From the NCBI GenBank assembly GCA_048571215.1, contig CP182352.1, positions 128,001 through 192,000 of the forward strand: a stretch of 64,000 nucleotides of DNA. The letters are read 5' to 3'. Positions within the stretch are counted from its first letter, which is position 1; each line of letters starts with the position of its first letter. The position numbers and the translations under genes were made by a program. The notes beneath the pieces were generated by a model, which was given only the letters and a program-made list of their open reading frames with translations, had not been told where the DNA came from and ran no database searches. Positions 34,779 to 60,331 of the stretch are shown one piece after another. The stretch comes from Halarcobacter sp. Lineage in GTDB: Bacteria > Campylobacterota > Campylobacteria > Campylobacterales > Arcobacteraceae.

Positions 34779-34808
34779 AAATTTAAGAGGAGTTTTCCTC
34801 TTAAATTT
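34779..34808. terminator. Bidirectional terminator
   Basis: AAATTTAAGAGGA-GTTT-TCCTCTTAAATTT, perfect 13-bp stem between convergent genes. Confidence 0.8.
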
Positions 34809-36854: not shown

Positions 36855-36951
36855 TATATCTCCAAATAGTGTTTCCAATGGAAACTTTTTGTGAAATTAT
36901 ACAGAAATTTTCTTAATTTTATATATTTATAAGAAATAGTATTTTGAAAAT

Positions 36952-36982
36952 AAAAAGGGGTTAAAAAAAAGATTTAACCCCT
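36952..36982 (-). terminator. Terminator downstream of ALDH copy 1
   Basis: AGGGGTTAAA/TTTAACCCCT stem with a T-run on the minus strand. Confidence 0.7.
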
Positions 36983-37000: not shown

Positions 37001-38392
37001 TTATAAAGAAGGGGATTTAATAACCATCATTTTTTGGTTTTGCATTTCTCTCATAGAATCAGCGATACCACCAAGACCAAGACCAGAAGTTTTAGCACCA
37101 CCAAAAGGCATCCAGTCAACTCTAAATGCAGTATGGTCATTTACCATAATAGCTGTACCATTTAATCTTTTAACTGCTTTAAGTGCAGTGTCAATATTTT
37201 TAGTAAATACAGCAGCTTGGAATGAAACATCTAATTGATTCGCTCTGTCAATAGCTTCATCTAAAGTTTTATATGAATAAACAACAACAACTGGACCAAA
37301 AATCTCTTTTTGAGAAATGATAGCATCATCAGCTGGGTTTACAATTACAGTTGGTTCATAACAAGAATCAGAGATTCTTTTACCACCAATTAAAATTTTA
37401 CCACCCTTAGTAACAGCTTCATTAACCCACTCTTCAACTCTATTTACTTCATTGTGATTAATTAATGGACCAACTTCAGTTTTTGGGTCTAATTGATCAC
37501 CAACAACCAATTTAGAAGCATAGTCAGTTAATTTATTTGCAACTTCATCACAAATAGATTCATGTACAAAAATTCTTTGAACAGATACACAAACTTGACC
37601 AGCATGATAAAAACCACCTTTTCCTAAATCAGGAATCATAGCATCTATATCTGCATCTGGCTCAACAATAACAGGAGCAACCCCACCATGCTCTAAAGCA
37701 GATCTAGTTCCAGGAGATGCTTTTGAGTTTAAGTACCAACCAACAGGTCCTGAACCAATAAATGTAAAGAATGCAGTTTTAGGAGATGTTACAAGTAGCT
37801 CTCCCCCTTTTCTGTCACAAACAACAGCTTGTGCCCAACCATCAGGAAGTCCAGCTTCTTTTAAAATCTCAACTAATCTAATAGCTGACATAGGAGTTTG
37901 AGTAGCTGGTCTAATAATTACAGGACAACCAACAGCAATAGCAGGTATTACTTGGTGAACTGCAAGGTTAAAAGGATGGTTAAATGCAGAGATTGCTGCA
38001 ACTACACCAATAGGTTCTTTCATTGTGTAAGCCATTCTGTTTACACTAGTAGGTGTGTGACCCATAGCAATCTCATGACCCTCTTGTACACTTAATTGCT
38101 CAATAGCAATCTTAATACCATTGATAGCTCTTAGAACTTCAACCTTAGAATCCATATATGGTTTACCACCTTCACTAGCACAAAGAATAGTTAACTCTTC
38201 TACTTGTGAAGACATAATTTTCATAACATTTTCTAAAATCTCAACTCTTTTAAATTTTGGAATCCAGTTATCAACATCTAAAAACTTCTCATAAGCTAAA
38301 TCTATTGTAGATTCTACTTCTTCAAAACTACTAAATGGTACTTCTCCTACTACTTTCCCATCATATGGTGATGTTACTTCTATTTTACTCAT
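37001..38392 (-). CDS. NAD(P)+ aldehyde dehydrogenase, copy 1 (candidate succinic-semialdehyde dehydrogenase)
   Basis: FNHP, FIGSG, LEHGG, HAGQVCVS (catalytic Cys), EIFGP, MPFGG. Confidence 0.9.
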   Translation of the reverse strand: MSKIEVTSPYDGKVVGEVPFSSFEEVESTIDLAYEKFLDVDNWIPKFKRVEILENVMKIMSSQVEELTILCASEGGKPYMDSKVEVLRAINGIKIAIEQLSVQEGHEIAMGHTPTSVNRMAYTMKEPIGVVAAISAFNHPFNLAVHQVIPAIAVGCPVIIRPATQTPMSAIRLVEILKEAGLPDGWAQAVVCDRKGGELLVTSPKTAFFTFIGSGPVGWYLNSKASPGTRSALEHGGVAPVIVEPDADIDAMIPDLGKGGFYHAGQVCVSVQRIFVHESICDEVANKLTDYASKLVVGDQLDPKTEVGPLINHNEVNRVEEWVNEAVTKGGKILIGGKRISDSCYEPTVIVNPADDAIISQKEIFGPVVVVYSYKTLDEAIDRANQLDVSFQAAVFTKNIDTALKAVKRLNGTAIMVNDHTAFRVDWMPFGGAKTSGLGLGGIADSMREMQNQKMMVIKSPSL

Positions 38393-38423: not shown

Positions 38424-38951
38424 TTAATTTTGTGTAAAATCTTTTGCATTAAAAGATAAATCATCTGAAGACAATCGATATAGTTTCAGGTTATCTACAC
38501 AATAAGCACCTTGTTTTTCATAAAACTTCATTGCTTTATTATTCCAATCTAAACATGCCCATTCTAAATATTCACACCCTTTATCAATAGAATATTTTGC
38601 AAGATATTGAAACATGATTTTTCCTAAACCCTTACCTCTTACACACTCATCTATAAAAAATGCATCGATATATAGTCCTTTTCGACCAGAAAATGCAGAA
38701 CTCTTTTGATGAAAATATATAAAAGAGCATATCTTGTTTTTATAAATACCAAAAACGGCTTCTCCTAATTTTTCATCTAACAATCTTTTTATACGTTTTG
38801 GTGTTGCTGTTATAGCATCTTCCATTTTTTGAAAAGTTCCAAGTTTTTTCATGAAAGTTACAATTAATTGTGCATCGTCACTTGTTGCCATTCTTAAACT
38901 ATAATCTGAATTTTTGCTAGATATTAAATTTTCCTTTACTTTTTCAGACAT
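38424..38951 (-). CDS. GNAT N-acetyltransferase (diamine/spermidine acetyltransferase-like)
   Basis: GLYIDAFFI, RGKGLGK, LEWACLDWNNKAMKFYEKQGA. Confidence 0.8.
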   Translation of the reverse strand: MSEKVKENLISSKNSDYSLRMATSDDAQLIVTFMKKLGTFQKMEDAITATPKRIKRLLDEKLGEAVFGIYKNKICSFIYFHQKSSAFSGRKGLYIDAFFIDECVRGKGLGKIMFQYLAKYSIDKGCEYLEWACLDWNNKAMKFYEKQGAYCVDNLKLYRLSSDDLSFNAKDFTQN

Positions 38952-38964
38952 AATATTGGTTTGT

Positions 38965-39405
38965 TTATTGATAATCAGTTAATCTTATTACAAATACTGA
39001 ACATGCAGCATGTCTCATAACACGCTCTGAAGTACTACTTATAAAGTAACTTCCAAGTCCCGGTTTTGTTGCCATCATAACAATAGCATCAGCCTTAATT
39101 CTTCTAGCTTCTTCTAGAATCTCCCTATGTGCTGAACCATCTCTTATATTAAAAGTGATTTTATCTTCAGGCAAGGAGTGCTTTTTTGCGATTTTTTTCA
39201 ACTCAATAAATGCATCATGATTGTAGTGTTTCTCATTTTCATCATCAAGAATTGGGTAAACAGAGCCATGAGCTCTATTTTCATTAACATATAATAAAGA
39301 TAATTTTCCATCTTCATTATTTAGTACTTCTAATGCTCCTGCAAAAAGTTTTTCGTGATTATCTATATAATCTAAATGCAATGGAACTAAAATATTTTTG
39401 AACAT
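38965..39405 (-). CDS. Universal stress protein (TRAP-associated, TeaD/UspG-like)
   Basis: MFKNILVPL, GSAHREILE, ADAIVM, SSTSERVMRHAACSVFVIR. Confidence 0.88.
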   Translation of the reverse strand: MFKNILVPLHLDYIDNHEKLFAGALEVLNNEDGKLSLLYVNENRAHGSVYPILDDENEKHYNHDAFIELKKIAKKHSLPEDKITFNIRDGSAHREILEEARRIKADAIVMMATKPGLGSYFISSTSERVMRHAACSVFVIRLTDYQ

Positions 39406-39416
39406 CATTATGCCTT

Positions 39417-40550
39417 TCACATTGATTTATCAAGTATTTTTTCTACTATTGTAGAATTTACGATTTTATTTTCACCAAATTCGCTAAATCCATGTTTTTC
39501 TAATAATGGAATTACCTTTTGTTTTACTTCTTTATCATCAGTATATTTTGAAAGTTTAAGTTCCACACCTAATGATTTATATAAGTCTTCAATTTTTTCT
39601 ATTATCTCATCTTCATCTTGGGTATCAATATTAAATACATTTTTTCCCAATTGAATAAGTTTGTCTCTTTTATGTTCTTTTAATACTCTTAAAAGATTTG
39701 GTTGTATAATTGCCAAAGTTCTAGCATGGTCAATTCCATATAGTCCACTAAGCTCATGACCTATATAGTGTGTAGCCCAATCTTGAGGTACACCTAAACA
39801 AATAAGACCATTTAGTGCTTGGTTTGCCAACCACATTAGGTTTGCATACCAAAGATCATTTTTATTATCTATTGTTGATGCTAATTCAACTAGTGCTCTT
39901 AATATCCCTTCACTATAGTTATCTTGTGCTAACATACCATGTTTATATGTAAGATATTGTTCACAGGTGTGAATAAAAGAATCAATAAGTCCATTTACTA
40001 TTTGTCTTTCATCTAAACTTTTTAGTACGTCTGGGTCCAATATAGCAAATTTTGGGAAAGAGTGTTCTGATCTAAAAAATCTTTTTTCTTTTGTCTGTTT
40101 TTTTGTTATAACAGAACCTGTATTTGATTCACTCCCTGTTGCTGCTAGTGTTAAAACAGCTCCAATTGGTAAGGCTTTTGTAGAGATATATTTACCTTCA
40201 AGCAAATCCCAAGGCTCTCCATCATAATAAAAAGCATTAGCTACATATTTTGCACCATCAATTACAGAACCTCCACCTACAGCTAATATATAATCAACAT
40301 TTTTCTCTTTTGCTAATTTTATTGCATTGTCAAGATTTTCTTTTGTAGGGTTTGGCTCTACTCCACTAAATTCATACCAAGTGTATCCTTCCAAAGAGTC
40401 TACAACTTGTTTGTATACACCATTTCTTTTTATACTTCCACCACCATATATAAATAATACCTTGTGGTTTTTTGGAATAAATGAAGATATAGTGTTGATT
40501 TTACCTTGCCCAAACTCGATTCGAGTAGGATTTAAATATGAAAATTCCAT
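39417..40550 (-). CDS. Iron-containing alcohol dehydrogenase / aldehyde reductase (YqhD-like)
   Basis: NPTRIEFG, YGGGSIK, GGGSVIDGAK, TLAATGSE, DWATHYIGHE, DHARTL. Confidence 0.9.
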   Translation of the reverse strand: MEFSYLNPTRIEFGQGKINTISSFIPKNHKVLFIYGGGSIKRNGVYKQVVDSLEGYTWYEFSGVEPNPTKENLDNAIKLAKEKNVDYILAVGGGSVIDGAKYVANAFYYDGEPWDLLEGKYISTKALPIGAVLTLAATGSESNTGSVITKKQTKEKRFFRSEHSFPKFAILDPDVLKSLDERQIVNGLIDSFIHTCEQYLTYKHGMLAQDNYSEGILRALVELASTIDNKNDLWYANLMWLANQALNGLICLGVPQDWATHYIGHELSGLYGIDHARTLAIIQPNLLRVLKEHKRDKLIQLGKNVFNIDTQDEDEIIEKIEDLYKSLGVELKLSKYTDDKEVKQKVIPLLEKHGFSEFGENKIVNSTIVEKILDKSM

Positions 40551-40590: not shown

Positions 40591-40638
40591 CAGAAAGGTT
40601 TGTACTACCTTTCTGAAAGGGAGTTTATAAATCCCTTT
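40591..40638. other. Tandem hairpins between dctM and the ADH gene
   Basis: CAGAAAGGT/ACCTTTCTG and AAAGGGA/TCCCTTT stems, with no U-tail on the minus strand. Confidence 0.5.
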
Positions 40639-41962
40639 ATCCCATAACTTTATCTGGTAACCAAAGAACAATCTCTGGGAAAACCATACAGATAATTAGA
40701 ACTGTTAAATTTACTAAAATAAATGGAGTAACTGATTTATAAATCTCTCCCATTCCTATTTCTGGTGGTGCAATACCTTTTAAATAAAATAGTGCAAAAC
40801 CATAAGGTGGAGTTTGTACTGCTATTAAAATATTTATAATCATTAAAACACCAAACCAAATTGGGTCATATCCTAAACTAACAGCAATTGGTGTAAATAG
40901 TGGTGCACACATTAGTACAATAATAAACTCATCAATAATAAATCCAAGGAAAAGCATAATAAATTGAAACATAATAATAATCATAATTGGAGGTAGGTCT
41001 AATCCATGAGTAAAATCTGCAATCATCCCTTGAATTCCCATTAATAAATGGAAGTTACTAAATACAGAAGCACCTAAAATAATCCACATGGCAACACTTA
41101 CTAAGATACCTGTTTGTAGTCCAACTGTTCGCATCATTTCTAATTTGAATCGTTTAAAGAATATTGCAAGTAAAATTGCACCAACAACACCTAAGGCACC
41201 AGATTCAGTTGGAGTTGCTATTCCACTAATAATACTACCTAGAACAACAAAGATTAAACCAATTGAAAGAAAACCATCTCTAAATACTCTAAGTTTTTCT
41301 TTCCCTTTTAGTTTAGGTAAACCTGGATTGTTTTCACTAAGTAGTGGAGCATTTTCAGGTTTGATAATTGAACTAATTATAATATATGTAACAAGTAGAA
41401 TTACAGTAATAAGTGCAGGTACCATAGCTCCTAAGAACATTCTACCTACTGAATTTTGAGTTGAAGCTGCAAACATAATCATTGGAATACTTGGTGGGAT
41501 TAAAATACCTAAAGCTCCACCAGCCATAATAGTTCCAAGAGCTAGTCTTTTATTATATCCAGCATCTAGCATTGGTTTTAAGGCAATACTTCCTGAGCTC
41601 ATAATACCAGCACCAATGATACCAACCATTGCACCAATCATCGAACAAATAAAAACTACACTGATAGCTAAAGAACCTCTAATCTTACCAATCATCATTT
41701 GACTTGCTTTAAACATTGCATCACCAATACCTGAGTGGGTTAAGAGTTGTCCCATATATATGTAAAGGGGAATAGCCAGTAAAATAAAACTAAAAAAAGT
41801 TGATTCAACAGTAGTTGGAATTACATTAAAAATTCCCTCTCCCCAAGTGAAATAACCTATTAACATAGCAATTCCACCTAAAGCTAAACCTACAGGAGCA
41901 CCTAGTGCAAAGAATATTAAAATACATAATAATAATACCCCTGTTAATAATTCAATACTCAT
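40637..41962 (-). CDS. dctM: TRAP transporter large permease
   Basis: LLAIPLY, GGALGILIPPSIPMI, GIATPTESGA, DPIWFG, QTPPYG. Confidence 0.93.
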   Translation of the reverse strand: MSIELLTGVLLLCILIFFALGAPVGLALGGIAMLIGYFTWGEGIFNVIPTTVESTFFSFILLAIPLYIYMGQLLTHSGIGDAMFKASQMMIGKIRGSLAISVVFICSMIGAMVGIIGAGIMSSGSIALKPMLDAGYNKRLALGTIMAGGALGILIPPSIPMIMFAASTQNSVGRMFLGAMVPALITVILLVTYIIISSIIKPENAPLLSENNPGLPKLKGKEKLRVFRDGFLSIGLIFVVLGSIISGIATPTESGALGVVGAILLAIFFKRFKLEMMRTVGLQTGILVSVAMWIILGASVFSNFHLLMGIQGMIADFTHGLDLPPIMIIIMFQFIMLFLGFIIDEFIIVLMCAPLFTPIAVSLGYDPIWFGVLMIINILIAVQTPPYGFALFYLKGIAPPEIGMGEIYKSVTPFILVNLTVLIICMVFPEIVLWLPDKVMG

Positions 41963-42494
41963 TCTTAGACTCCTTTTCAATTAAAGGTGAACCAGTAAAT
42001 AAATGGTAAGCCTCTTCAATAATATCTCTTAATAATTGTATTGCAAAAGTAACACTTGCTACCCCTAACATTACCCAAAAGTGCCACATTACAGGTGCCC
42101 ATTCGCTTTGACGTCTATAATCAAACTCTACTGCTTCATTAAATTTTGTAATACTCATATAAAAAATGATTATTAGAAAAAATATTCCCAATGAAAAAGA
42201 GATTATGTTAAAGATATTTTTTACTTTAGGCGAAACTGATAAATATAGAATATCAACATTAATATGAGCTTTCCTTTGTTGAGCATAAGCTCCCCCTAAA
42301 GCAGCAATATAGCCAAATAGAAATAGTGATAAATCGTATGCCCAAATTGTAGGGGCATCAAATATATATCTAGCAACCACTTCAAAAGCAACAATAAAAG
42401 CAAGGATGGGCATCAAATATGATGTCCCTTTCCCTAACCACATGACAATTGTATCAACTGTCTTGCAAAATAATTGTAAGAATTTTTTAAACAT
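41952..42494 (-). CDS. dctQ: TRAP transporter small permease
   Basis: EVVARYIFDAPTIWAYD and HINVD; four TM helices. Confidence 0.9.
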   Translation of the reverse strand: MFKKFLQLFCKTVDTIVMWLGKGTSYLMPILAFIVAFEVVARYIFDAPTIWAYDLSLFLFGYIAALGGAYAQQRKAHINVDILYLSVSPKVKNIFNIISFSLGIFFLIIIFYMSITKFNEAVEFDYRRQSEWAPVMWHFWVMLGVASVTFAIQLLRDIIEEAYHLFTGSPLIEKESKNEY

Positions 42495-42516
42495 GGTATA
42501 ACCTGTCAAAATTCAA

Positions 42517-43530
42517 TTATTTAGATTGTTTTCTTAATACATCAATAAGTTGCTTGCTGTATTTATCTTTAGAAGAGTACTCGTCCCAAAGACCAGCCCC
42601 AGCATCATGCCAAGCTTTTTTATCAGCTTCAGAAGGTTCAGGAGACCATTTTAAACCTTTAGCTTCCATTTGAGCAACAGCTTCTTTTTCCCATTTTCTA
42701 GACATAGTTAATTGATTTTTTGCATGTGCAACAGTTGCATCATATACACCTTTTTTCTGTGCATCAGTTAGTTTATTCCATGCAGCTCTATTAACAACAA
42801 TAGGTAAAACTTGAGCACCAGCTAAAGGAAGTCTATACATATATTTAGCAACTTCAACATGGTTTCCATCTCTGTGGTCAATCATATTAGAACCAATAGA
42901 ACCATCAATAACACCAGTAGCTAAACTAGTATAGATTTCACTCCAAGCTAATGAAACAGGAGAAGCACCTAAGTTTCTTAAGAATTTACCATATGCACCA
43001 GGAGCTCTAATTTTTAAACCTTGGAAATCAGCAATAGATTTGATAGGTTTTTTAGTAATAATATAAACTGGTGGTTGAATATAAGGCTCTAACCATACTA
43101 AACCTTGAGAACCATAAGCTTTTTTAAGGATTTTGTCCCAACCATCTTCGTGGAAAAGTTTGTATAATTTATCAGTATCAGCAGTACCACCTGGTAAACC
43201 AATTTCAACTACACCAGCAGGTAATTCACCAGCATGCATAGATTGAAAAGGAGCAGCCATAGTAATAAGCCCAGATTTAGTAGCACCTAATAAACCAGAA
43301 GTTCCAACACCTTCACCTGAAAATAATACTTGAACTTTAATTTCACCATTTGTATTTTTTTCAATATCTTTTGCTAATTGTTGATATAAATCACCAAATG
43401 CAGTTCCTCTTCCGTATAGGTTTGCGAACCTCCAATTTTGAGCAGCTGAAGCTGTCTCTACAATTGACATTACCCCTAATAGTACAACTAATACAGTCAT
43501 TACTATATTTCTTTTCATGTTAGTAAACAT
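42517..43530 (-). CDS. dctP: TRAP substrate-binding protein, copy 1
   Basis: Signal peptide; PIKSIADFQGLKIRAPG and EIYTSLATGVIDG. Confidence 0.93.
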   Translation of the reverse strand: MFTNMKRNIVMTVLVVLLGVMSIVETASAAQNWRFANLYGRGTAFGDLYQQLAKDIEKNTNGEIKVQVLFSGEGVGTSGLLGATKSGLITMAAPFQSMHAGELPAGVVEIGLPGGTADTDKLYKLFHEDGWDKILKKAYGSQGLVWLEPYIQPPVYIITKKPIKSIADFQGLKIRAPGAYGKFLRNLGASPVSLAWSEIYTSLATGVIDGSIGSNMIDHRDGNHVEVAKYMYRLPLAGAQVLPIVVNRAAWNKLTDAQKKGVYDATVAHAKNQLTMSRKWEKEAVAQMEAKGLKWSPEPSEADKKAWHDAGAGLWDEYSSKDKYSKQLIDVLRKQSK

Positions 43531-43618: not shown

Positions 43619-44923
43619 TTAGTTTTTTACTAGATCGACAAATAATTCTTGGAATTTATCTAGACCTTCATTAGCTATTTCATCACTAATAGTTAATGCT
43701 GGTAAAAATCTAATTACATTGCTATTAAAACCACAAGATAATAAGATTAATCCATATTCAGAAGCTTTACCAACAATTGCTTTTGTTAGTTCAGCATTTG
43801 GTTTTTCAATATCCCCATCTTTCATTAGTTCTAAAGCAATCATTGCACCCTTATTTCTAACATCCAAAATCAATTCTGGAAATTGTGATTTAAGTTCGTT
43901 TAATCTTTTATTAAAAATATCACCAATTTGATTTGATCTATTGATTAAATCCTCTTCTTCAATAATATCAAGTACTTTTAATGCCGCAGCACAAGCAACT
44001 GGTGAACCACCATAAGTTCCACCAAGTCCACCTGGAACTGGAGAATCCATTATTTCAGCTTTTCCAACTACTGCAGATAGAGGATAACCTCCTGCAATAC
44101 CTTTTGCCATTGTCATTAAATCAGGTTCGATTCCAGAATATTCAATATTAAACATTTTCCCAGTTCTTCCAAATCCTGTTTGAATCTCGTCAATAATTAA
44201 TACAATTCCATTTTCATCACATATTCTTCTAAGTTCTTGTAACAGTTCTACTGGAGTTTGGTAAAATCCACCTTCCCCTTGAATAGGTTCAACAATAATT
44301 GCAGCAACATCACTTGGTAAAATATCAACTTTAAATAGGTTTTTTAAGGCAGTTAAAGTATCTTTTACAGAAGTTCCATTAAATTCAGTTGGATAAGGTA
44401 GATGATAAATTTCACCTGGGAATGGTCCAAATCCAATTTTATATGGAGCAATTTTCCCTGTTAATCCCATAGTTAAATTAGTTCTTCCATGAAATGCACC
44501 ATTAAATGCAATTACACCTCTTCTTCCCGTATGAGCTCTAGCAATCTTTACACAGTTCTCAACAGCTTCTGCACCAGTTGTTACAAAAATAGCTTTTTTT
44601 TCAGTTTCACCTGGAGCAATCTTAGTTAGTTTTTCAGCCAACTCAACTGCAACTTCATATGGATTAACCATAACACAAGTATGACTAAAGTTTTCTATTT
44701 GTGTTTTTACAGCTTCAACAATTTTAGGATGACTATGTCCTGTATTACATACAGCAATACCTGTACCAAAATCAATAAATCTATTACCTTCTACATCCCA
44801 AATTTCAGAATTTTTTGCTTTTTCAACAAAAGATTGATACGCATTTCCTTGACCTCTTGCAAAAACTTTATTTTTTCTGTTTTGAAGGTTTTGATTATTT
44901 TTTACTTGAATTTTTTTGTTCAT
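43619..44923 (-). CDS. gabT: 4-aminobutyrate (or 5-aminovalerate) aminotransferase, class III PLP
   Basis: DFGTGIAVCNTGHSHP, TTGAEAVEN, FHGRT, EPIQGEGG, DEIQTGFGRTG, AKGIAGG, GGLGGTYGG. Confidence 0.9.
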   Translation of the reverse strand: MNKKIQVKNNQNLQNRKNKVFARGQGNAYQSFVEKAKNSEIWDVEGNRFIDFGTGIAVCNTGHSHPKIVEAVKTQIENFSHTCVMVNPYEVAVELAEKLTKIAPGETEKKAIFVTTGAEAVENCVKIARAHTGRRGVIAFNGAFHGRTNLTMGLTGKIAPYKIGFGPFPGEIYHLPYPTEFNGTSVKDTLTALKNLFKVDILPSDVAAIIVEPIQGEGGFYQTPVELLQELRRICDENGIVLIIDEIQTGFGRTGKMFNIEYSGIEPDLMTMAKGIAGGYPLSAVVGKAEIMDSPVPGGLGGTYGGSPVACAAALKVLDIIEEEDLINRSNQIGDIFNKRLNELKSQFPELILDVRNKGAMIALELMKDGDIEKPNAELTKAIVGKASEYGLILLSCGFNSNVIRFLPALTISDEIANEGLDKFQELFVDLVKN

Positions 44924-44948
44924 TGATTAAATCCTTATATAATTTCAA

Positions 44949-45962
44949 TTATTTAGATTGTTTTCTTAATACATCAATAAGTTGCTTGCTGTATTTATCT
45001 TTAGAAGAGTACTCGTCCCAAAGACCAGCCCCAGCATCATGCCAAGCTTTTTTATCAGCTTCAGAAGGTTCAGGAGACCATTTTAAACCTTTAGCTTCCA
45101 TTTGAGCAACAGCTTCTTTTTCCCATTTTCTAGACATAGTTAATTGATTTTTTGCATGTGCAACAGTTGCATCATATACACCTTTTTTCTGTGCATCAGT
45201 TAGTTTATTCCATGCAGCTCTATTAACAACAATAGGTAAAACTTGAGCACCAGCTAAAGGAAGTCTATACATATATTTAGCAACTTCAACATGGTTTCCA
45301 TCTCTGTGGTCAATCATATTAGAACCAATAGAACCATCAATAACACCAGTAGCTAAACTAGTATAGATTTCACTCCAAGCTAATGAAACAGGAGAAGCAC
45401 CTAAGTTTCTTAAGAATTTACCATATGCACCAGGAGCTCTAATTTTTAAACCTTGGAAATCAGCAATAGATTTGATAGGTTTTTTAGTAATAATATAAAC
45501 TGGTGGTTGAATATAAGGCTCTAACCATACTAAACCTTGAGAACCATAAGCTTTTTTAAGGATTTTGTCCCAACCATCTTCGTGGAAAAGTTTGTATAAT
45601 TTATCAGTATCAGCAGTACCACCTGGTAAACCAATTTCAACTACACCAGCAGGTAATTCACCAGCATGCATAGATTGAAAAGGAGCAGCCATAGTAATAA
45701 GCCCAGATTTAGTAGCACCTAATAAACCAGAAGTTCCAACACCTTCACCTGAAAATAATACTTGAACTTTAATTTCACCATTTGTATTTTTTTCAATATC
45801 TTTTGCTAATTGTTGATATAAATCACCAAATGCAGTTCCTCTTCCGTATAGGTTTGCGAACCTCCAATTTTGAGCAGCTGAAGCTGTCTCTACAATTGAC
45901 ATTACCCCTAATAGTACAACTAATACAGTCATTACTATATTTCTTTTCATGTTAGTAAACAT
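44949..45962 (-). CDS. dctP: TRAP substrate-binding protein, copy 2
   Basis: Identical translation to 42517..43530. Confidence 0.93.
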   Translation of the reverse strand: MFTNMKRNIVMTVLVVLLGVMSIVETASAAQNWRFANLYGRGTAFGDLYQQLAKDIEKNTNGEIKVQVLFSGEGVGTSGLLGATKSGLITMAAPFQSMHAGELPAGVVEIGLPGGTADTDKLYKLFHEDGWDKILKKAYGSQGLVWLEPYIQPPVYIITKKPIKSIADFQGLKIRAPGAYGKFLRNLGASPVSLAWSEIYTSLATGVIDGSIGSNMIDHRDGNHVEVAKYMYRLPLAGAQVLPIVVNRAAWNKLTDAQKKGVYDATVAHAKNQLTMSRKWEKEAVAQMEAKGLKWSPEPSEADKKAWHDAGAGLWDEYSSKDKYSKQLIDVLRKQSK

Positions 45963-46201: not shown

Positions 46202-48688
46202 TTAATTTATAATGGGGATATATATGGAGAATCTTACTCCCTGCTCGATATTTTTTACACTTAATTGTCCATTCATATTTTGTTCTATAATAATTTTACT
46301 CATATATAAACCAAGTCCAGTACCATTATAACTATCTTTAGTTGTAAAATAAGGTTCAAACACTTTATTAATGATTGATTCATTTATTCCACCTGCATTA
46401 TCTGAAATCATTATCTTTATATGTGTATCGATTAGTTTAGTTTTTATTATAATATGAGGATTTTCAATATTTTTTTCTAGAAAGGAATCTTTTGAGTTTG
46501 TGATTATATTTAATAAAACCTGTGAAAGTTCACTTTCAAATCCATGGATTGATACATCATCCAAGATTTGGGTTTCAATTTTAATACTATTACTTTTAAA
46601 ACTATCATCTATTAGGAATATGGTTTGATTTATGGCATCTTTTATAGAAAAAGATCTTTTCTCTTTATTAGGTTTAAAAAAGTTTCTAAAATCATCAATA
46701 GTTTTTGACATTTTTTCTGTTAGGGCATTACTTAGAAGCATTTGTTTATCTAAATACTCTTTATCAAGTTTATTAAGTGAATAGCGTAGATGAATATTTT
46801 GTATAATTGTACTAAGAGCACTTAAAGGTTGTCTCCATTGATGGGCAATCATACTTATCATCTCACCCATTTCTGCTAGTTTTGATTGTTGGATTAATAG
46901 TTGTTCTTGTTTCTTTCTGTTATTAATCTCCTCTTTTATTCTAACATCAAGGGTATTATTTAAATGTTCAAGTTCATGAGTTTTATGTTGTAGTTTTTCA
47001 TTTGATAATTGAAGTTCATGGGTTCTCATTTGCACTTTTTTTTCTAAAGTGCTATTTAGCATCTCAATCTCCTCTTTTACTTTTGTTAATTTTCTTATAT
47101 ATCTTCGTTGAAGAATATATGTATATAAAATTAGTAATAAAATAAAAAATAGAAAACTTATAATACTCCAAAACAGTTTATAATCGATACTTTTTTCATA
47201 TTTTATTGTAACCCATTTATTAATGATTTTTTGTTTTGTTTCATCACTTATTGAGTCTATTACTTTTTCAAAGATATCTAGAAGTATTGGATCATCATTT
47301 CTTACCCCTATAGATAACTTCCATTGTTCATCAAACTTTCCTGAAATTTGTAAACTTCCATAAAACTCTTCTTGAAATGCATAAGCAACATTTAGGTGAG
47401 TTGTTACTTGACCAAATATCTCTCCCCTTTCAACTCTTTTTAAGCCATCCCTTAAATGATTTACATCTACTACTTGTAAATCGGGATATTTCCGTCTTAT
47501 TATTTCATTGTATGCGAAGTTTTTTTGAATACCAATTTTTTTATTTTTTAAAGCACTTAAATCACTAATAAAACTTACATTTCTTTTTGTAACTAAAACA
47601 AGAGGTGCTGTCACATATGGTTTAGTAAAATTCATATAACCTTGTCGTGATTTTATATCCATAACAAAAGATAAAACATCACATTTTCTATTTTTCATAT
47701 ATTCTAAGGATTGTGTCCAATCTTTTGTTTCTATGAGTTTTAAAGGGATGCCAATTTTCTTTTCAAAATCCTTCATATAGTCTGCTACAATACCAATATG
47801 TTTATGGTTTTCTATTTTTTCATAGGGCATCCAATCTGGATCTACACATAGGTTTATATGTGATTTTTTATCTAAATAATCTATCTCTTCTTTTGTAAAA
47901 ATTATGGGTAGATTTGCCAAATCTTTTAAAAACCATTTATCAAAAAGTTCTTTTTCCTCTTTTATTGAAATTGAGTTTAAACCTTTTTCTAAAATAGATT
48001 GAAGTAGTACTTTCTTTTTACTAGTAAAAATAAATAGTTTTGAATATTCAAAGCTTATTGAAGGTATTGCTTTTAGGTCAACAATTAGATTATCTTCTAA
48101 ATATTCTTGAATAATAATTGGTGAAGCTATTAAAGCATCAACCTCTCCTGCTAGTAGTTTTTGAACTGATTCTTTCATATTATTAGTTCTTTCCAATTTT
48201 ATATTGGCAAACCTTTTTTTTATATTAGGGATAGTTCCTAATTGGTCAACTATAGCAACTTTTTTATTTCTTAGATCATTAATTGAATTTATATTATTTT
48301 CTTCTTTTTTTACAAATAAAACTTTTTTTATTTGTAAAATTTCTGAAGAGTAAACTCCTAAATCATTTTCAACTTTTTTATTATTTATTATTGGGGCTAG
48401 ATCTATTCTACCTTCTTTGATTGCAAGAGGTATAGTAGCTTGTTTAAGTTTGATTGGTTTAATTCTTATATGATATTTTTTGGTGATAAGTTTTAATATA
48501 TCACTTACAAATCCATCTATTTTGTTATCTTTATTTATATATGTTAAAGGATAAAGTTCAGATACTCCAATTCTTACTTCATTGTTTTTTATCCAGTCCT
48601 CTTCTTCTTGAGTTAGAACTGTGGAGTCAGCATATAAGAGATTTAAAAATAAAAAAATAAAAAAAACAAACTTCAAAAATGACTCCAA
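46202..48688 (-). CDS. Sensor histidine kinase with two periplasmic amino-acid-binding (SBP_bac_3-like) domains
   Basis: Signal/TM; two BvgS-like binding domains (CVDPDWMPYE); TM; IAHQWRQPLS; HATPase. Confidence 0.9.
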   Translation of the reverse strand: MESFLKFVFFIFLFLNLLYADSTVLTQEEEDWIKNNEVRIGVSELYPLTYINKDNKIDGFVSDILKLITKKYHIRIKPIKLKQATIPLAIKEGRIDLAPIINNKKVENDLGVYSSEILQIKKVLFVKKEENNINSINDLRNKKVAIVDQLGTIPNIKKRFANIKLERTNNMKESVQKLLAGEVDALIASPIIIQEYLEDNLIVDLKAIPSISFEYSKLFIFTSKKKVLLQSILEKGLNSISIKEEKELFDKWFLKDLANLPIIFTKEEIDYLDKKSHINLCVDPDWMPYEKIENHKHIGIVADYMKDFEKKIGIPLKLIETKDWTQSLEYMKNRKCDVLSFVMDIKSRQGYMNFTKPYVTAPLVLVTKRNVSFISDLSALKNKKIGIQKNFAYNEIIRRKYPDLQVVDVNHLRDGLKRVERGEIFGQVTTHLNVAYAFQEEFYGSLQISGKFDEQWKLSIGVRNDDPILLDIFEKVIDSISDETKQKIINKWVTIKYEKSIDYKLFWSIISFLFFILLLILYTYILQRRYIRKLTKVKEEIEMLNSTLEKKVQMRTHELQLSNEKLQHKTHELEHLNNTLDVRIKEEINNRKKQEQLLIQQSKLAEMGEMISMIAHQWRQPLSALSTIIQNIHLRYSLNKLDKEYLDKQMLLSNALTEKMSKTIDDFRNFFKPNKEKRSFSIKDAINQTIFLIDDSFKSNSIKIETQILDDVSIHGFESELSQVLLNIITNSKDSFLEKNIENPHIIIKTKLIDTHIKIMISDNAGGINESIINKVFEPYFTTKDSYNGTGLGLYMSKIIIEQNMNGQLSVKNIEQGVRFSIYIPIIN

Positions 48689-48706
48689 AAATTTTTTATA
48701 AGTATA

Positions 48707-49897
48707 TCACACACAATCCAAGATTATAGAAAAACAAACACCTTCATTGATATTTTTTACATCTAGTTTCCCGTGATGATTGTTTTCTATAATAATTTTT
48801 GACATATAAAGACCAATTCCTGTACCATTTTTTTCTTTTTTTGTTGAAAAGTATGGTTCAAAAATGAAATTTAAATTATCTTTTTCAATTCCACCACCAT
48901 TATCATAAATTTCAATTTTTATACTATTTTCTAAATCTTGAGTTCTAATCTCGATTTTGGCATTTTCTATTTCTTTTTCTAAAAACTTATCTTGTGCATT
49001 TTTTAATATATTTATAAAAACATGAATAATTTCATTCTCATAAATATTAACTTTGTTTTCACTTTTTAAGTCTAATTCAATACTTATATCATTTGTTTGT
49101 AAATCTTTTTCTATAATTTTTAAACTATTTTTAATAGATTTTTCAATACTTGTATTTGTTATTATTTTATCTGTTTTATAAAAATTTCTAAAGTCATCTA
49201 TTGTTGTAGTTAGATTTTGTACATAAAACTCTATCTCATCAAGCTTATTAGTGAAAAACTCTGATTGTTCTATCCTACCTTCTTGAGTATTTAAGTCAAA
49301 TTTTCCCGATAGCAATTTATTTTTTAGATTAAATGAAGCAGTCCCAATAGAAGATAAAGGTTGTCTCCATTGGTGAGCAATCATACTTATCATCTCACCC
49401 ATTGCAGCAAATCTTGATTGAGCTTCCATAACTTTTTGTTTCTCTTCATTTTTTTGTATCTCTATTTCAAGTTTTTTATTTTTTTCTATTAACTCTTCTT
49501 TTAGCACTTTTGGTTCAATTGCTTTTATTAAACACTCTTCTAATTTATAGATATCAATAGGTTTTAATACATATGCACTTATATTTAATTCAATAGATTG
49601 CATAAGAAAGGTTGTTTCTTGATGAGCAGTTGTGATAATTATCGGGATATCTTTATCTATTTCTCTAATCTTTTTAATCATATCAAGACCATTTAATTTA
49701 GGCATTTTAATATCTGTTAAAATTAAATCAATTTTTTTATCACCAGCTTTAAAAATTGACAAACCCTCTTGTCCATCTTTAGCACATATTACATCTATTT
49801 CAAAAAGATTTAGGGTTTCTGTTATCCCTTTTTGAATTATTAATTCATCTTCTGCATAAAGTACAGTTATATTCTTTAATATTTGGCTATTTATCAT
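48707..49897 (-). CDS. Hybrid receiver-histidine kinase
   Basis: N-terminal REC (LYAEDE, TDIKMPKLNG, KP), then IAHQWRQPLS and HATPase. Confidence 0.9.
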   Translation of the reverse strand: MINSQILKNITVLYAEDELIIQKGITETLNLFEIDVICAKDGQEGLSIFKAGDKKIDLILTDIKMPKLNGLDMIKKIREIDKDIPIIITTAHQETTFLMQSIELNISAYVLKPIDIYKLEECLIKAIEPKVLKEELIEKNKKLEIEIQKNEEKQKVMEAQSRFAAMGEMISMIAHQWRQPLSSIGTASFNLKNKLLSGKFDLNTQEGRIEQSEFFTNKLDEIEFYVQNLTTTIDDFRNFYKTDKIITNTSIEKSIKNSLKIIEKDLQTNDISIELDLKSENKVNIYENEIIHVFINILKNAQDKFLEKEIENAKIEIRTQDLENSIKIEIYDNGGGIEKDNLNFIFEPYFSTKKEKNGTGIGLYMSKIIIENNHHGKLDVKNINEGVCFSIILDCV

Positions 49898-50081
49898 AAG
49901 AACTCTTTTTGTTTTTTTGAGTAGTATATCACTAAATAGTAGTCAAATAATCTCATAGTTATAGTATATAATAGAATATTTGATTATAAGGTTAATATTT
50001 TTGAACTATTATTTTATACATTTTAAAAGAAATAAAATGCTAATATAATGCCCAAGAACATCCTAATTTAGAAGGTTTTTA

Positions 50082-50816
50082 ATGGATTATGGCTTATTAA
50101 AAAAATATACTCGAAATTTAAATATTCTTTTTGTTGAAGATGATACAGATTTTAGAAAAGAGTTTTCAGAATTACTTCAAGATATTTTTCCAAAAGTCTC
50201 TACAGCTGTTGATGGGTTAGATGCACTTAATAAATACAAAGAGTTTTATGAGCAAACAAATACCTATTATGATTTAATTATTTCAGATATAAAAATGCCA
50301 AATTGTGATGGAGTTGAACTAATTGATTCCATATATAAAATCAAAGATGACCAATTAGTTATAATTTTATCTGCTAGAAATGAGTTTGATTATTTGTTGC
50401 CTTTAGTTAATCTAGGAATACATCAATTTTTCACAAAACCTATTGATTATTCAACTTTTTTAGATGATATGTTTAAGCTATGTAATCAGATTTATCATAA
50501 TAAATTAAATAATGATAATGATATTGTAAGAGTTAATGAGTCTTTAATTTGGGATAAAAAGAAAAGAAAACTAATACGAGATGATAAAATAATAGATTTA
50601 ACTAAAAATGAGATTCGTTTTGTTGAAACAATATTAAATAATAATGGCAAAATATGTACTGTTGATAATCTTATAGATATTATTTGGTTTGAAGAGTTTG
50701 ATTTGAATCCAGATATTTCACATCTAAAAAGTCTTATTTATCGTTTGAGAAAAAAAGTACCAGATTTACATATAAAAAATATTTATGGTATGGGATATAC
50801 TCACGATTCTAAGTAA
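50082..50816 (+). CDS. OmpR-family response regulator
   Basis: REC (LFVEDD, SDIKMP, KP) plus winged helix (LTKNE, LIYRLRKK, IKNIYGMGY). Confidence 0.9.
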   Translation: MDYGLLKKYTRNLNILFVEDDTDFRKEFSELLQDIFPKVSTAVDGLDALNKYKEFYEQTNTYYDLIISDIKMPNCDGVELIDSIYKIKDDQLVIILSARNEFDYLLPLVNLGIHQFFTKPIDYSTFLDDMFKLCNQIYHNKLNNDNDIVRVNESLIWDKKKRKLIRDDKIIDLTKNEIRFVETILNNNGKICTVDNLIDIIWFEEFDLNPDISHLKSLIYRLRKKVPDLHIKNIYGMGYTHDSK

Positions 50817-50864: not shown

Positions 50865-50889
50865 GGCGAAGAGAAAAAATCTCAACGCC
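50865..50889. terminator. Hairpin between the convergent response regulator and ALDH copy 2
   Basis: GGCG-AA-GAGA-AAAAA-TCTC-AA-CGCC, imperfect stem. Confidence 0.45.
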
Positions 50890-50895: not shown

Positions 50896-52287
50896 TTATA
50901 AAGATGGAGATTTAATAACCATCATTTTTTGGTTTTGCATTTCTCTCATAGAATCAGCGATACCACCAAGACCAAGACCAGAAGTTTTAGCACCACCAAA
51001 AGGCATCCAGTCAACTCTAAATGCAGTATGGTCATTTACCATAATAGCTGTACCATTTAATCTTTTAACTGCTTTAAGTGCAGTGTCAATATTTTTAGTA
51101 AATACAGCAGCTTGGAATGAAACATCTAATTGATTCGCTCTGTCAATAGCTTCATCTAAAGTTTTATATGAATAAACAACAACAACTGGACCAAAAATCT
51201 CTTTTTGAGAAATGATAGCATCATCAGCTGGGTTTACAATTACAGTTGGTTCATAACAAGAATCAGAGATTCTTTTACCACCAATTAAAATTTTACCACC
51301 CTTAGTAACAGCTTCATTAACCCACTCTTCAACTCTATTTACTTCATTGTGATTAATTAATGGACCAACTTCAGTTTTTGGGTCTAATTGATCACCAACA
51401 ACCAATTTAGAAGCATAGTCAGTTAATTTATTTGCAACTTCATCACAAATAGATTCATGTACAAAAATTCTTTGAACAGATACACAAACTTGACCAGCAT
51501 GATAAAAACCACCTTTTCCTAAATCAGGAATCATAGCATCTATATCTGCATCTGGCTCAACAATAACAGGAGCAACCCCACCATGCTCTAAAGCAGATCT
51601 AGTTCCAGGAGATGCTTTTGAGTTTAAGTACCAACCAACAGGTCCTGAACCAATAAATGTAAAGAATGCAGTTTTAGGAGATGTTACAAGTAGCTCTCCC
51701 CCTTTTCTGTCACAAACAACAGCTTGTGCCCAACCATCAGGAAGTCCAGCTTCTTTTAAAATCTCAACTAATCTAATAGCTGACATAGGAGTTTGAGTAG
51801 CTGGTCTAATGATTACAGGACAACCAACAGCAATAGCAGGTATTACTTGGTGAACTGCAAGGTTAAAAGGATGGTTAAATGCAGAGATTGCTGCAACTAC
51901 ACCAATAGGTTCTTTCATTGTGTAAGCCATTCTGTTTACACTAGTAGGTGTGTGACCCATAGCAATCTCATGACCCTCTTGTACACTTAATTGCTCAATA
52001 GCAATCTTAATACCATTGATAGCTCTTAGAACTTCAACCTTAGAATCCATATATGGTTTACCACCTTCACTAGCACAAAGAATAGTTAACTCTTCTACTT
52101 GTGAAGACATAATTTTCATAACATTTTCTAAAATCTCAACTCTTTTAAATTTTGGAATCCAGTTATCAACATCTAAAAACTTCTCATAAGCTAAATCTAT
52201 TGTAGATTCTACTTCTTCAAAACTACTAAATGGTACTTCTCCTACTACTTTCCCATCATATGGTGATGTTACTTCTATTTTACTCAT
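50896..52287 (-). CDS. Aldehyde dehydrogenase, copy 2
   Basis: Identical protein to 37001..38392; 30 bp downstream of the ThDP enzyme gene. Confidence 0.9.
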   Translation of the reverse strand: MSKIEVTSPYDGKVVGEVPFSSFEEVESTIDLAYEKFLDVDNWIPKFKRVEILENVMKIMSSQVEELTILCASEGGKPYMDSKVEVLRAINGIKIAIEQLSVQEGHEIAMGHTPTSVNRMAYTMKEPIGVVAAISAFNHPFNLAVHQVIPAIAVGCPVIIRPATQTPMSAIRLVEILKEAGLPDGWAQAVVCDRKGGELLVTSPKTAFFTFIGSGPVGWYLNSKASPGTRSALEHGGVAPVIVEPDADIDAMIPDLGKGGFYHAGQVCVSVQRIFVHESICDEVANKLTDYASKLVVGDQLDPKTEVGPLINHNEVNRVEEWVNEAVTKGGKILIGGKRISDSCYEPTVIVNPADDAIISQKEIFGPVVVVYSYKTLDEAIDRANQLDVSFQAAVFTKNIDTALKAVKRLNGTAIMVNDHTAFRVDWMPFGGAKTSGLGLGGIADSMREMQNQKMMVIKSPSL

Positions 52288-52317
52288 GTTTTTTATCTCT
52301 CCTTTTATTTTTTTGTA

Positions 52318-53967
52318 TTATAACATACACTCTTTTTTAGCTAATAATTCATTTAATATTGAGTGATTTAATGAATAATCAACTGCTAGGTCAATCAAGT
52401 GAACACCTTTACCGTTTACACACTCAGCTAATGTTTTTTCAAACTCTTCACAAGATTGAGGTCTATGTCCAGTTGCACCGTAACTTTCTGCATATTTAAC
52501 AAAATCTGGGTTTTCTAAGTCTAAACCATAAGTTTCAAATCCCATACCTGTTTGTTTCCATTTAATCATTCCATATGAGTTGTCATTTAAGATAACTACA
52601 GTTAAATCTAAACCTAATCTAACAGCTGTTTCCATCTCTTGTGAGTTCATCATAAATCCACCATCACCACAAACTGCAACAACTTTTGAATCTGGACATA
52701 CCATTTTTGCAGCCATACCAGAAGGTAGACCTGCACCCATAGTTGCAAGGGCATTGTCAAGTAATAATGTATTTGGTTGTGCACATCTATAGTTTCTTGC
52801 AAACCAGATTTTATATACACCATTATCAAGTGTTACAATATCTTTTTCATCTAAAGTTTGTCTAATAGTTCTTACTGCTTTTTGTGGTAAGATAGGAAAT
52901 CTTGTATCTCCAAAATATTTTGAAAGTCTAGTTCTAATCTCTTCTGCTAATCTAATATAATAATCAAAATCCCAGTGCTCTTGTTTTGAAATTGCATTTG
53001 TCATTTGAGTCATATTTTGAGCAATATCACCTATTACGTCCATTTGAGGGAAATAAGTATCATCTACTTCTGATGGGAAAAAGTTTATATGTAAAACTTT
53101 TGTTGCATCGGGATGGTTTTCCATAAAAAATGGTGGTTTTTCAATTACATCATGTCCAACATTGATGATTAAATCTGCTCTATCAATTGCACAATGAATA
53201 AAATCATCTTTTGATAATGCTGCTGTACTTAAACATAATTTGTGATTTTCATCAACAACCCCTTTACCCATTTGTGTAGAGAAAAATGGAATTCCTGTTT
53301 CATTTACAAAGTTAGTTAAGGCATCACCAATTCTACTTCTATTTGCACCTGCTCCAATTAGTAAAAGTGGTCTTTTTGCTTTTTCAATCATTTTTACCGC
53401 TTCTAATATTGCAGATTTTTCTGCATAAGGGTATCTAAATGAGTGAACTGGATAGATATTATCATCCACTTCCTCTTCTGCAATATCTTCAGGTAGTTCT
53501 ATATGAACAGCACCTGGTCTTTCTGTAGTAGCTATTTTAAATGCTTCTCTTACCATTGATGGTATATTGTTTCCATTTACAACTTGTTTAGCGTATTTAG
53601 TCATTGGTTTCATCATACCAACTATATCTACAATTTGAAATCTACCTTGTTTTGATTTTTTAATTGGTTTTTGACCAGTTATCATCATCATTGGCATACC
53701 ACCTAGTTGTGCATATGCTGCTGCTGTTGCAAAGTTAGTAGCCCCTGGCCCTAAAGTTGAAATACATACTCCAACTTTTCCTGTAAGTCTTCCATAAGTT
53801 GCAGCCATAAAACCTGCACCTTGTTCATGTCTTGTTAATATAAGTTTGATTTTCGATTGTCTTAAAGATTCTAAAAAGTCTAAGTTTTCTTCACCTGGAA
53901 TACCAAAAATATATTCAACACCTTCATTTTCTAATGCTTTTATAAATAAATCTGATGCTTTCATCAT
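52318..53967 (-). CDS. ThDP-dependent enzyme, acetolactate-synthase-like (candidate 2-oxoglutarate decarboxylase)
   Basis: FGIPGEEN, RHEQGAGFMA, TLGPGATN, ThDP motif GDGG...NDN; no ilvN/ilvH nearby. Confidence 0.8.
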   Translation of the reverse strand: MMKASDLFIKALENEGVEYIFGIPGEENLDFLESLRQSKIKLILTRHEQGAGFMAATYGRLTGKVGVCISTLGPGATNFATAAAYAQLGGMPMMMITGQKPIKKSKQGRFQIVDIVGMMKPMTKYAKQVVNGNNIPSMVREAFKIATTERPGAVHIELPEDIAEEEVDDNIYPVHSFRYPYAEKSAILEAVKMIEKAKRPLLLIGAGANRSRIGDALTNFVNETGIPFFSTQMGKGVVDENHKLCLSTAALSKDDFIHCAIDRADLIINVGHDVIEKPPFFMENHPDATKVLHINFFPSEVDDTYFPQMDVIGDIAQNMTQMTNAISKQEHWDFDYYIRLAEEIRTRLSKYFGDTRFPILPQKAVRTIRQTLDEKDIVTLDNGVYKIWFARNYRCAQPNTLLLDNALATMGAGLPSGMAAKMVCPDSKVVAVCGDGGFMMNSQEMETAVRLGLDLTVVILNDNSYGMIKWKQTGMGFETYGLDLENPDFVKYAESYGATGHRPQSCEEFEKTLAECVNGKGVHLIDLAVDYSLNHSILNELLAKKECML

Positions 53968-54249
53968 ATCTCCGTTTTTTTTTATTAATTTATACCGTAG
54001 TGTCCCACAAAATGTTTTAAATAGTTGTTAAAAATTATAAATAAATTAAATCAAAATGGTAAAATTTATACAAGTGCGAATAAACGACACATAGATTATT
54101 AAATATTATTTTAACTTTAAATAAATACATTAAAACTTTATATTATTTTAACCTAAGTTTACATATATTTTAATTGTAATTACAATATTGTTAGTTAAAT
54201 TTTTGTTTTTTTTGATACAATTATTTATAACTAGTTTAGGTTGAAACAT

Positions 54250-60205: not shown

Positions 60206-60331
60206 TTTTTTCCTTTCAGTAATGAAACTTTTAATAAATAAAAATTGTTTTCATTACAACTGATAATTTCAATAGGTCTAATATAAAATATTAATTAAAT
60301 TTTCAAACTAATTTATTTGTCCTTAAAATAG

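Follow-up and report, generated by a model that had tools for sequence, protein, structure and literature searches.

The window, a stretch of 64,000 nucleotides, carries on its reverse strand a gene for a ThDP-dependent enzyme of family PRK08322 (52318..53967, 549 aa), which the NF006187 profile, sequence identities and a tree lead us to predict as a 2-oxoglutarate decarboxylase. After a gap of 30 bp (52288-52317) it is followed on the same strand by an aldehyde dehydrogenase gene (ALDH copy 2, 50896..52287, 463 aa), predicted from alignment to PDB entry 5MZ5, a tree and a residue table to encode a succinic semialdehyde dehydrogenase, likely NADP+-dependent. An earlier note on this DNA had pointed to the close pairing and to the lack of any ilv gene nearby, and both observations hold: neither ilvH nor budA adjoins the ThDP gene, and the AHAS pair of the genome (ilvIH, C1:1217922-1220106, in which we take one gene to be ilvH by resemblance) lies ~1 Mb away. 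A reverse-strand hairpin after ALDH copy 2 (50865..50889; -13.3 kcal/mol, z -4.95, with 0 of 200 shuffles as good) is likely a terminator. A scan for sigma-70 promoters performed no better than shuffled sequence (107 versus 104). One metatranscriptome contig spans the ThDP-ALDH junction (51295-53974); as a contig, it does not reveal the strand or establish that the two genes share one transcript.

The duplicated ALDH and the gabT island

A second ALDH gene (copy 1, 37001..38392, reverse strand) encodes the identical protein with three synonymous nucleotide differences, and the likeness ends at the ORF ends. It lies, as the earlier note had also stated, at the downstream end of a gabT cluster and beside sucCD, in the order dctP-gabT-dctP-dctQ-dctM-FeADH-usp-GNAT, then ALDH, then sucC-sucD, all on the reverse strand. 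The gabT product (43619..44923), a 4-aminobutyrate--2-oxoglutarate transaminase, scores 578 bits against a TIGR00700 cut-off of 507 and falls short on four further GabT models. On either side of it are two dctP ORFs with no nucleotide differences (upstream copy 44949..45962, downstream copy 42517..43530), whose shared product is a TRAP binding protein by NF037995 and PF03480. They are followed by dctQ and dctM (40637..42509), of which dctM is over the TIGR00786 cut-off and dctQ gives a weak small-permease match, and by genes for an Fe-alcohol dehydrogenase, a universal stress protein and a GNAT protein (38424..40550). Succinyl-CoA synthetase is encoded at 34807..36878, and a second terminator-like hairpin (36956..36982, reverse strand) separates ALDH copy 1 from sucC. 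Between dctM and the genes that precede ALDH copy 1 there is a double hairpin (~40570-40640), so that a single gabT-to-ALDH transcript is only putative. Between the island and ALDH copy 2 (46202..50816) are an SBP_bac_3 sensor kinase and a response regulator-kinase hybrid on the reverse strand and a response regulator on the forward strand.

In 13 genomes a gabT island has a copy of the ALDH on either side. In 12 of these the two copies differ at 0-7 of ~1389 nt, near-identity that indicates gene conversion as the process likely to keep the two copies the same; in G143 they have diverged. Each of the 13 island copies examined has the universal stress protein and the set of sensor kinase, hybrid and response regulator, the Fe-alcohol dehydrogenase and GNAT genes varying, and this regulatory set is likely to control the island. 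In one genome (G123), for which no ThDP gene was found, the ALDH lies in the gabT/TRAP cluster. The genome of the window gave no match to the PF00282 decarboxylase, which points to GABA uptake and catabolism rather than a glutamate-GABA shunt. GabT, transporter and ALDH are clustered as in GabT/GabD systems of GABA catabolism, but the island has a TRAP transporter with duplicated dctP, a non-GabD ALDH, and an ALDH gene that doubles as a direct repeat around the island. ALDH copy 1 would serve this island, with GabT yielding the same aldehyde that is predicted for the ThDP operon, and the gene-converted pair offers a natural test of one enzyme acting in both.

The ThDP enzyme and the cyanobacterial decarboxylases

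The window enzyme scores 887 bits on NF006187 (PRK08322), the family of the cyanobacterial 2-oxoglutarate decarboxylases OgdA/KGD (SYNPCC7002_A2770, Sll1981, MAE_06010), against a cut-off of 509 that is not exclusive, as one Bacillus subtilis match also clears it. Our KGD reference rows are metagenome proteins that stand in for an assayed KGD sequence; the Microcystis-type stand-in (L170) scores 876, has all 15 of the MaKGD residues named in PMC10418658, and is 44.7% identical to the window enzyme. The OgdA-like N-terminus described in the earlier note holds for the Microcystis-type stand-in, which has LENEGVEYIFGLPGEEN where residues 12-28 of the window enzyme read LENEGVEYIFGIPGEEN.

Residues were compared across 65 full-length cyanobacterial-type rows (from the first 80 of 116 loci), 96 non-cyanobacterial rows and four AlsS/AHAS controls. 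The PGEEN motif (E26-E27-N28 in the window enzyme), K386, A408 and K471 are common to every one of the 65 cyanobacterial-type and 96 non-cyanobacterial rows and occur in none of the four controls. Seven MaKGD residues that are named as ThDP/Mg or catalytic positions or were mutated there (E50, M410, G434, D435, D462, Y465 and Y531) are all identical in the window enzyme, whose own key residues include E48, M410, D435, D462 and Y465; several of the seven are general to ThDP enzymes. In and around the 2-oxoglutarate pocket of MaKGD, which was derived by docking on a model (PMC10418658), three of eight residues are identical, both lysines (K386 and K471) among them, and five pocket or ThDP contacts change from KGD to the window enzyme (Q254S, V382N, A384V, H385Y and L467M).

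The phylogeny that had been proposed as a check places the window clade and the KGD clade together, apart from AlsS and AHAS (support 97/95), but puts the window enzyme outside the cyanobacterial clade, in a separate sister clade on a branch of 1.81 (100/100). We found no assayed member in this sub-clade. The likeness to OgdA claimed beforehand stands at the level of family and deep grouping and not of clade membership, and it does not extend to the partner: cyanobacterial-type KGD loci mostly have an adjoining ALDH, as here, but it is of the GabD1/PRK09406 (SsaD) type and lies upstream, whereas the window ALDH lies downstream and is a sister of ALDH21.

The partner ALDH and its fusions

The ALDH misses the GabD1/PRK09406 cut-off (228 versus 730 bits), falling in a different clade of the tree, as well as the GabD cut-offs TIGR01780 (310 versus 646) and PRK11241 (246 versus 828). 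It resembles the NADP+-dependent succinic semialdehyde dehydrogenase of moss (PpALDH21, PDB 5MZ5; E 3e-87), sharing its catalytic Cys and Glu (C268 and E234), but is only ~35% identical to ALDH21-type domains and forms their sister clade with support of 100, ALDH21 being represented in the tree by plant fusion domains. The residues Arg121, Tyr296 and Arg457, to which a bioRxiv preprint assigns binding of the succinic semialdehyde carboxylate, align with R88, Y262 and R424. This triad is found in all 18 rows of the window ALDH's clade and in none of seven other ALDHs in the residue table, and it is present also in the group members 8HAP and 5KF0, so that it indicates an anionic aldehyde and not uniquely succinic semialdehyde. 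In line with the single shared aldehyde of the earlier note, gabT is present in every one of the 14 genomes that have the ALDH twice. T164 and R194 presumably fit NADP+, for which the enzyme is likely to have a preference. A GabD1-like ALDH in the ectoine cluster of the same genome could also oxidise succinic semialdehyde.

Proteins related to the ThDP enzyme carry ALDH21-like domains as fusions or have them encoded directly downstream. Of the 75 long homologues, 73 are ThDP-Aldedh fusions, and ThDP-ALDH21 fusions occur in liverworts, a fern and algae; in Riccia P0033 the N-terminal half is 62% identical to the window ThDP enzyme and the C-terminal half has moss ALDH21 as its best PDB match (E 9.7e-196). 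With neighbours called by tblastn, an ALDH lies directly downstream at 67 of 80 related ThDP loci (seven contigs stop too early and six lack one), with GdhA near nine and an FMN glutamate-synthase-like gene near six. In same-genus relatives without the island, sucC-sucD follows close behind the ThDP-ALDH pair.

A predicted route from 2-oxoglutarate to succinate

Family assignment and motifs, the active-site residues of the ALDH, the fusions, the order of the genes and their distribution across the family lead us to infer that the ThDP enzyme would decarboxylate 2-oxoglutarate to succinic semialdehyde and the adjoining ALDH would oxidise this to succinate. We give this CoA-free shortcut through the TCA cycle a probability of about 0.8. 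The pair is a variant of the known cyanobacterial bypass and not a wholly new pathway. Oor and SucCD are both intact in the genome of the window, so the bypass that the earlier note envisaged would be, in this organism, a parallel and unneeded one, an iron-free route beside Oor and SucCD. The Arcobacteraceae enzyme coexists with Oor in most genomes, unlike the cyanobacterial system.

Among 147 Arcobacteraceae genomes, sucC was found in 90, the PRK08322 enzyme in 105, OorA in 139 and a family-I CoA-transferase in 16; ODH E1 and an AarC-type transferase were found in none of the 147. Of the 65 genomes that lack sucC or OorA, 60 carry the PRK08322 enzyme, and of the 82 that have both, 45 carry it; these counts are of related genomes and could trace back to a small number of independent losses. 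The five genomes with neither route are all drafts of 140-250 contigs. In one genus (g30), OorA is missing from all four genomes, POR_N and ODH are missing from the three tested, and sucC, sucD, the ThDP gene and the ALDH stand in a row in the three examined. Here SucCD would make succinyl-CoA from succinate, while in relatives without SucCD the pair would close the oxidative cycle; wherever SucCD or Oor is lacking, it would have no recognised alternative. Succinyl-CoA synthetase is reported to be absent from Arcobacter butzleri and A. thereius (PMC2147049, PMC5495459), and the available text of these reports names no substitute. The pair could fill this gap; an unrecognised succinyl-CoA thioesterase may be an alternative.

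With less assurance, we lean towards a broader proposal. The large, unassayed "acetolactate synthase" clade, which spans Arcobacteraceae, many Proteobacteria, Bacteroidota, anammox bacteria and the ThDP-ALDH21 fusions of liverworts, a fern and algae, would make up a second 2-oxoglutarate decarboxylase lineage. Its presence in Arcobacteraceae would have allowed the loss of SucCD or Oor, explaining the TCA gap of A. butzleri reported in 2007, and the semialdehyde dehydrogenase gene would be the direct repeat through which the GABA island is maintained and homogenised and also lost. If the predicted activities are right, the annotation is wrong across a ThDP family with an estimated 11,000 or so matching stretches in the genome collection, a cyanobacterial-type bypass is added to Campylobacterota, and the TCA cycle is closed in the many Arcobacteraceae for which the usual enzyme of this step was not found.

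It is possible, if unlikely, that the pair acts on other or wider anionic 2-oxoacids, for example yielding glutarate from 2-oxoadipate by way of glutarate semialdehyde, in which case the substrate of GabT would be 5-aminovalerate. The five pocket differences and long branch from KGD agree with this, as does a triad common to other ALDHs of the group, and GabT and GabD enzymes often take C5 homologues. It leaves unexplained, however, why the distribution of the enzyme nearly complements that of sucC and OorA, the linkage to sucCD in several genera, the fusion to ALDH21-like domains, and the retention of the ThDP enzyme in all 37 genomes of one genus in which only two have gabT.

A catabolic acetolactate synthase of AlsS type, serving acetoin overflow next to an unrelated or acetaldehyde-type ALDH, is very improbable. 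It has in its favour the database label and the best PDB matches, all named acetolactate synthase (top match 13BB, E 2.6e-155). AlsS and AHAS (IlvB/IlvI) do belong to the same three-domain ThDP family, at 31% and 27-30% identity respectively, but differ in the N-terminal loop, with PGAKI in AlsS in place of PGEEN, and in C-terminal residues. The window enzyme falls below the AlsS cut-offs PRK08617 (444 versus 510; the KGD stand-in clears the AlsS model, at 516 versus 510) and TIGR02418 (397 versus 551), and below the AHAS cut-off TIGR00118 (404 versus 538). The genome has an acetolactate-decarboxylase domain, but it is unlinked, at a distance of ~1.5 Mb, and forms part of a 517-aa fusion protein whose N-terminus is hydrophobic; none was found in the four other genomes of the family tested. 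AlsS controls adjoin budA, not an ALDH.

Still less credible is a ThDP enzyme that is mainly a carboligase on 2-oxoglutarate, with the ALDH clearing a side product, despite its descent from the carboligating ALS/AHAS fold and the mycobacterial 2-hydroxy-3-oxoadipate precedent cited in PMC10418658. Against this, the steady coupling and fusion to an ALDH imply a released aldehyde. The acidic residues 26-27 also occupy what we take to be the proton-donor place of decarboxylases, as in pyruvate decarboxylase. Finally, although the ALDH and dctP repeats are near-perfect and ORF-sized, an assembly artefact that would void the shared-aldehyde argument was rejected, as the arrangement recurs across four genera, in 12 genomes besides this one, most of them of 1-3 contigs, with each genome carrying its own allele at both places and the G143 copies diverged.

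The ThDP enzyme and its partner aldehyde dehydrogenase

The ThDP enzyme gene (52318-53967, minus strand; 549 aa) lies 30 bp from an ALDH gene (50896-52287, minus strand; 463 aa) followed by a stable hairpin. Sequence comparison suggests, with a probability that we put at roughly 0.8, that the two products act as 2-oxoglutarate (2-OG) decarboxylase and succinic semialdehyde (SSA) dehydrogenase. The pathway itself is already known, and the window pair would be a variant form of it. Genome-based mentions of the pathway concern Thiomicrorhabdus, methanotrophs and Thiobacter; the literature covered included PMC9751133, PMC6373157, PMC11596669 and PMC13147460. The literature searched, whose coverage excludes subscription journals, gave no description of the route in Campylobacterota, in line with the earlier note.

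The ThDP enzyme scored 887 bits against PRK08322 (cut-off 509) and fell below the cut-offs of the AlsS (catabolic acetolactate synthase) and AHAS (IlvB/IlvI type) models, although these cut-offs overlap, a B. subtilis match clearing PRK08322 and our stand-in for the cyanobacterial decarboxylase (KGD/OgdA) clearing the AlsS model. This stand-in, L170, came from a metagenome scan with a motif from PMC10418658. It has 550 aa, and was used because its termini agree with the model of the assayed Microcystis enzyme, MaKGD, and all 15 of the 15 residues named there are matched. The window enzyme shares 44.7% identity with L170, versus 27-31% with AlsS/AHAS. Its PGEEN motif, K386, A408 and K471 recur in every row compared, 65 of cyanobacterial type and 96 others, and are absent from all four AlsS/AHAS controls; its departures from KGD in the pocket, at Q254, V382, A384, H385 and L467, count against the assignment. 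In a 40-sequence tree the window and KGD clades grouped against AlsS/AHAS (support 97/95), but the window enzyme fell in a separate clade on a branch of 1.81, the tree tool flagging long branches. Though placed outside the OgdA clade, it probably works in the OgdA manner.

The ALDH cleared no NCBIfam cut-off. Among its best PDB matches was moss ALDH21 (5MZ5), described in PMC7823795 as an NADP+-dependent SSA dehydrogenase, whose Arg121, Tyr296 and Arg457 hold the carboxylate of SSA while repelling aminoaldehydes (bioRxiv 10.64898/2026.01.13.699213). These residues are R88, Y262 and R424 in the window ALDH, an equivalence hand-counted on the 5MZ5 alignment with an 18-residue tag offset. Every one of the 18 rows in the clade uniting ALDH21 with its sister group has the triad, against none of seven other ALDHs; since it was also seen in further ALDHs of the same group, it marks an anionic aldehyde and not specifically SSA, and it is context that picks SSA among these. 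Functional roles are ascribed to an acidic loop residue, AlsS Lys40 and ALDH21 Arg228.

Coupling and fusion of the two genes

Of the 80 best related loci, many of them from sphingomonads, 67 have an ALDH gene following in the same orientation; in seven of the remainder the contig ends, and six lack an ALDH. Near the ThDP gene in these 80 loci, GdhA was found in nine and an FMN glutamate-synthase-like gene in six. Across the family the partner is of GabD1 type (cyanobacteria, Halorarius), ALDH21 type or the sister type seen in the window. Long homologues of the ThDP enzyme carry an Aldedh domain in 73 of 75 cases. In one of these fusions, P0033 from Riccia, the ThDP part is 62% identical to the window enzyme and the other domain has ALDH21 as its best PDB match (E 9.7e-196). 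ThDP-ALDH21-like fusions occur in liverworts, a fern and algae (P0033, P0040, P0045, P0050, P0052-P0054, P0060 and P0062), several of the plant and algal ones being annotated as GAPN or lactaldehyde dehydrogenase, and are candidates for a 2-OG decarboxylase bypass in plants.

The duplicated ALDH and the gabT island

A second ALDH gene (37001-38392) encodes an identical protein; the copies have three differences, all synonymous, and similarity is confined to the ORF. The block separating them (12.5 kb; the island) reads response regulator, RR-kinase, SBP_bac_3 kinase, dctP-gabT-dctP-dctQ-dctM, Fe-ADH, usp and GNAT. Past the second copy come a terminator-like hairpin and sucC-sucD, so that the arrangement described earlier, an ALDH 30 bp from the ThDP gene and its twin ending a gabT cluster beside sucCD, was confirmed. 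A double hairpin upstream of the second ALDH may end the island transcript before that gene. The two dctP ORFs are identical, an exact duplicate either side of gabT that includes ~90 nt of upstream sequence (42509-46055). Such doubling is found in 6 of 13 island genomes, the other five of these six (G006, G012, G016, G065 and G143) each having their own allele (0-6 differences). The islands of G074 (L271:8515-10236) and G018 (L029, near 9204) have a 573-aa gene upstream of gabT; that of G074 is FMN glutamate-synthase-like, and genes of this family are likewise neighbours of the ThDP gene in Leisingera and Streptomyces plasmids.

Two ALDH copies occur in 14 genomes, all 14 with gabT, and in 0 of 125 gabT-less genomes. 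The other eight gabT genomes are all drafts, seven having the two genes on different contigs or the ALDH missing; in G123 the sole ALDH is the gabT-linked one. The copies border the island in 13 genomes of four genera, and within 12 of these they show 0-7 differences in ~1389 nt, the nearest copy elsewhere showing 33-266. G143 has 319 differences between its copies, and G083, whose copies are unlinked, has 301, the gabT-linked one in both belonging to the allele group of the window copies and many single ThDP-linked copies. Island-less relatives of the same genus have ThDP-ALDH-sucC-sucD with at most three intervening ORFs (9/9 such stretches). We infer that gene conversion would have homogenised two old paralogues time after time, the island being lost through recombination between the repeats; repeated insertion of the island via the ALDH gene is a possible alternative. 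Under either origin one allele fills both positions, which strengthens the earlier argument for a shared aldehyde. The G006 ALDH is 80% identical to that of the window genome (G000), with neighbouring genes at 82-99%, and is nearer to other-genus alleles (88-89%), a case of allele replacement.

Distribution and genomic background

Among 147 Arcobacteraceae genomes, each at least 92% complete, sucC was carried by 90, PRK08322 by 105, the window-type ALDH by 106, OorA (2-OG oxidoreductase, Oor) by 139, gabT by 22 and a family-I CoA-transferase by 16; ODH E1 and AarC-type transferase were found in 0/147. With genomes not listed assigned by exclusion, the ThDP enzyme was present in 60/65 genomes lacking sucC or OorA versus 45/82 with both, or in 53/57 if the CoA-transferase is counted as rescue. 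All five of the 65 that lack it are draft assemblies in 140-250 contigs. The surveyed genomes are kin, and independent losses may therefore be few. Genus g14 has sucC in 0/37 and the pair in 37/37, and four of five named Arcobacteraceae genomes carrying the ThDP enzyme gave no sucC match. A. butzleri is reported to lack SucCD and has AB2136 'ilvB' (548 aa) immediately before the AB2135 ALDH (463 aa), away from ilvIH (PMC2147049), which resembles the window pair in lengths and order, the features compared; A. thereius also lacks succinyl-CoA synthetase (PMC5495459). In genus g30 OorA is absent from 4/4 genomes, POR_N and ODH are absent from 3/3 tested, and the order sucC-sucD-ThDP-ALDH holds in 3/3 examined. 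G147, G148 and G150 of this genus, with no POR_N or ODH matches, are apparently without PFOR and Oor, which is unusual for Campylobacterota.

The window DNA has Arcobacteraceae as nearest named relatives, and its genome is one contig of 3.6 Mb with 28.5% GC. Its AHAS genes (a pair), a cluster of four Oor genes and PFOR all lie outside the window, labelled by domain matches and gene order; the ThDP gene is without ilv neighbours, as noted earlier. Possession of both Oor and SucCD counts against a need for the bypass here. Two further points stand against our reading. One is a GabD1-like ALDH in an ectoine degradation cluster (G000:C1:1946297-1954158; DoeA, DABA transaminase, TRAP); of the six other Aldedh matches in the genome, none of the four scanned exceeded a GabD cut-off. 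The other is an acetolactate-decarboxylase domain unlinked to the ThDP gene (G000:C1:1676095-1677648), in a stand-alone gene with a hydrophobic N-terminus and a further ~250-aa domain, and with no match in four other family genomes tested.

Further oxidation of succinate needs Frd working as succinate dehydrogenase, a direction in which the products of the frdCAB-like genes (60405-63948) may run. These and two dynamin-like genes (55857-63948), all labelled by resemblance, share the strand of the ThDP gene and stand upstream of it. At G000:C1:3067610-3077393 a second gabT (83% nt identity), preceded by an ABC transporter, an agmatinase-like gene, a permease and an aminobutyraldehyde-dehydrogenase-like ALDH, is likely part of a polyamine-to-GABA route that would supply SSA to the window ALDH. 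A quinohemoprotein amine dehydrogenase-like cluster (18064-26101; alpha, radical SAM, gamma, beta, ABC, protease and flavoprotein, labelled by resemblance) could yield aldehydes as further ALDH substrates.
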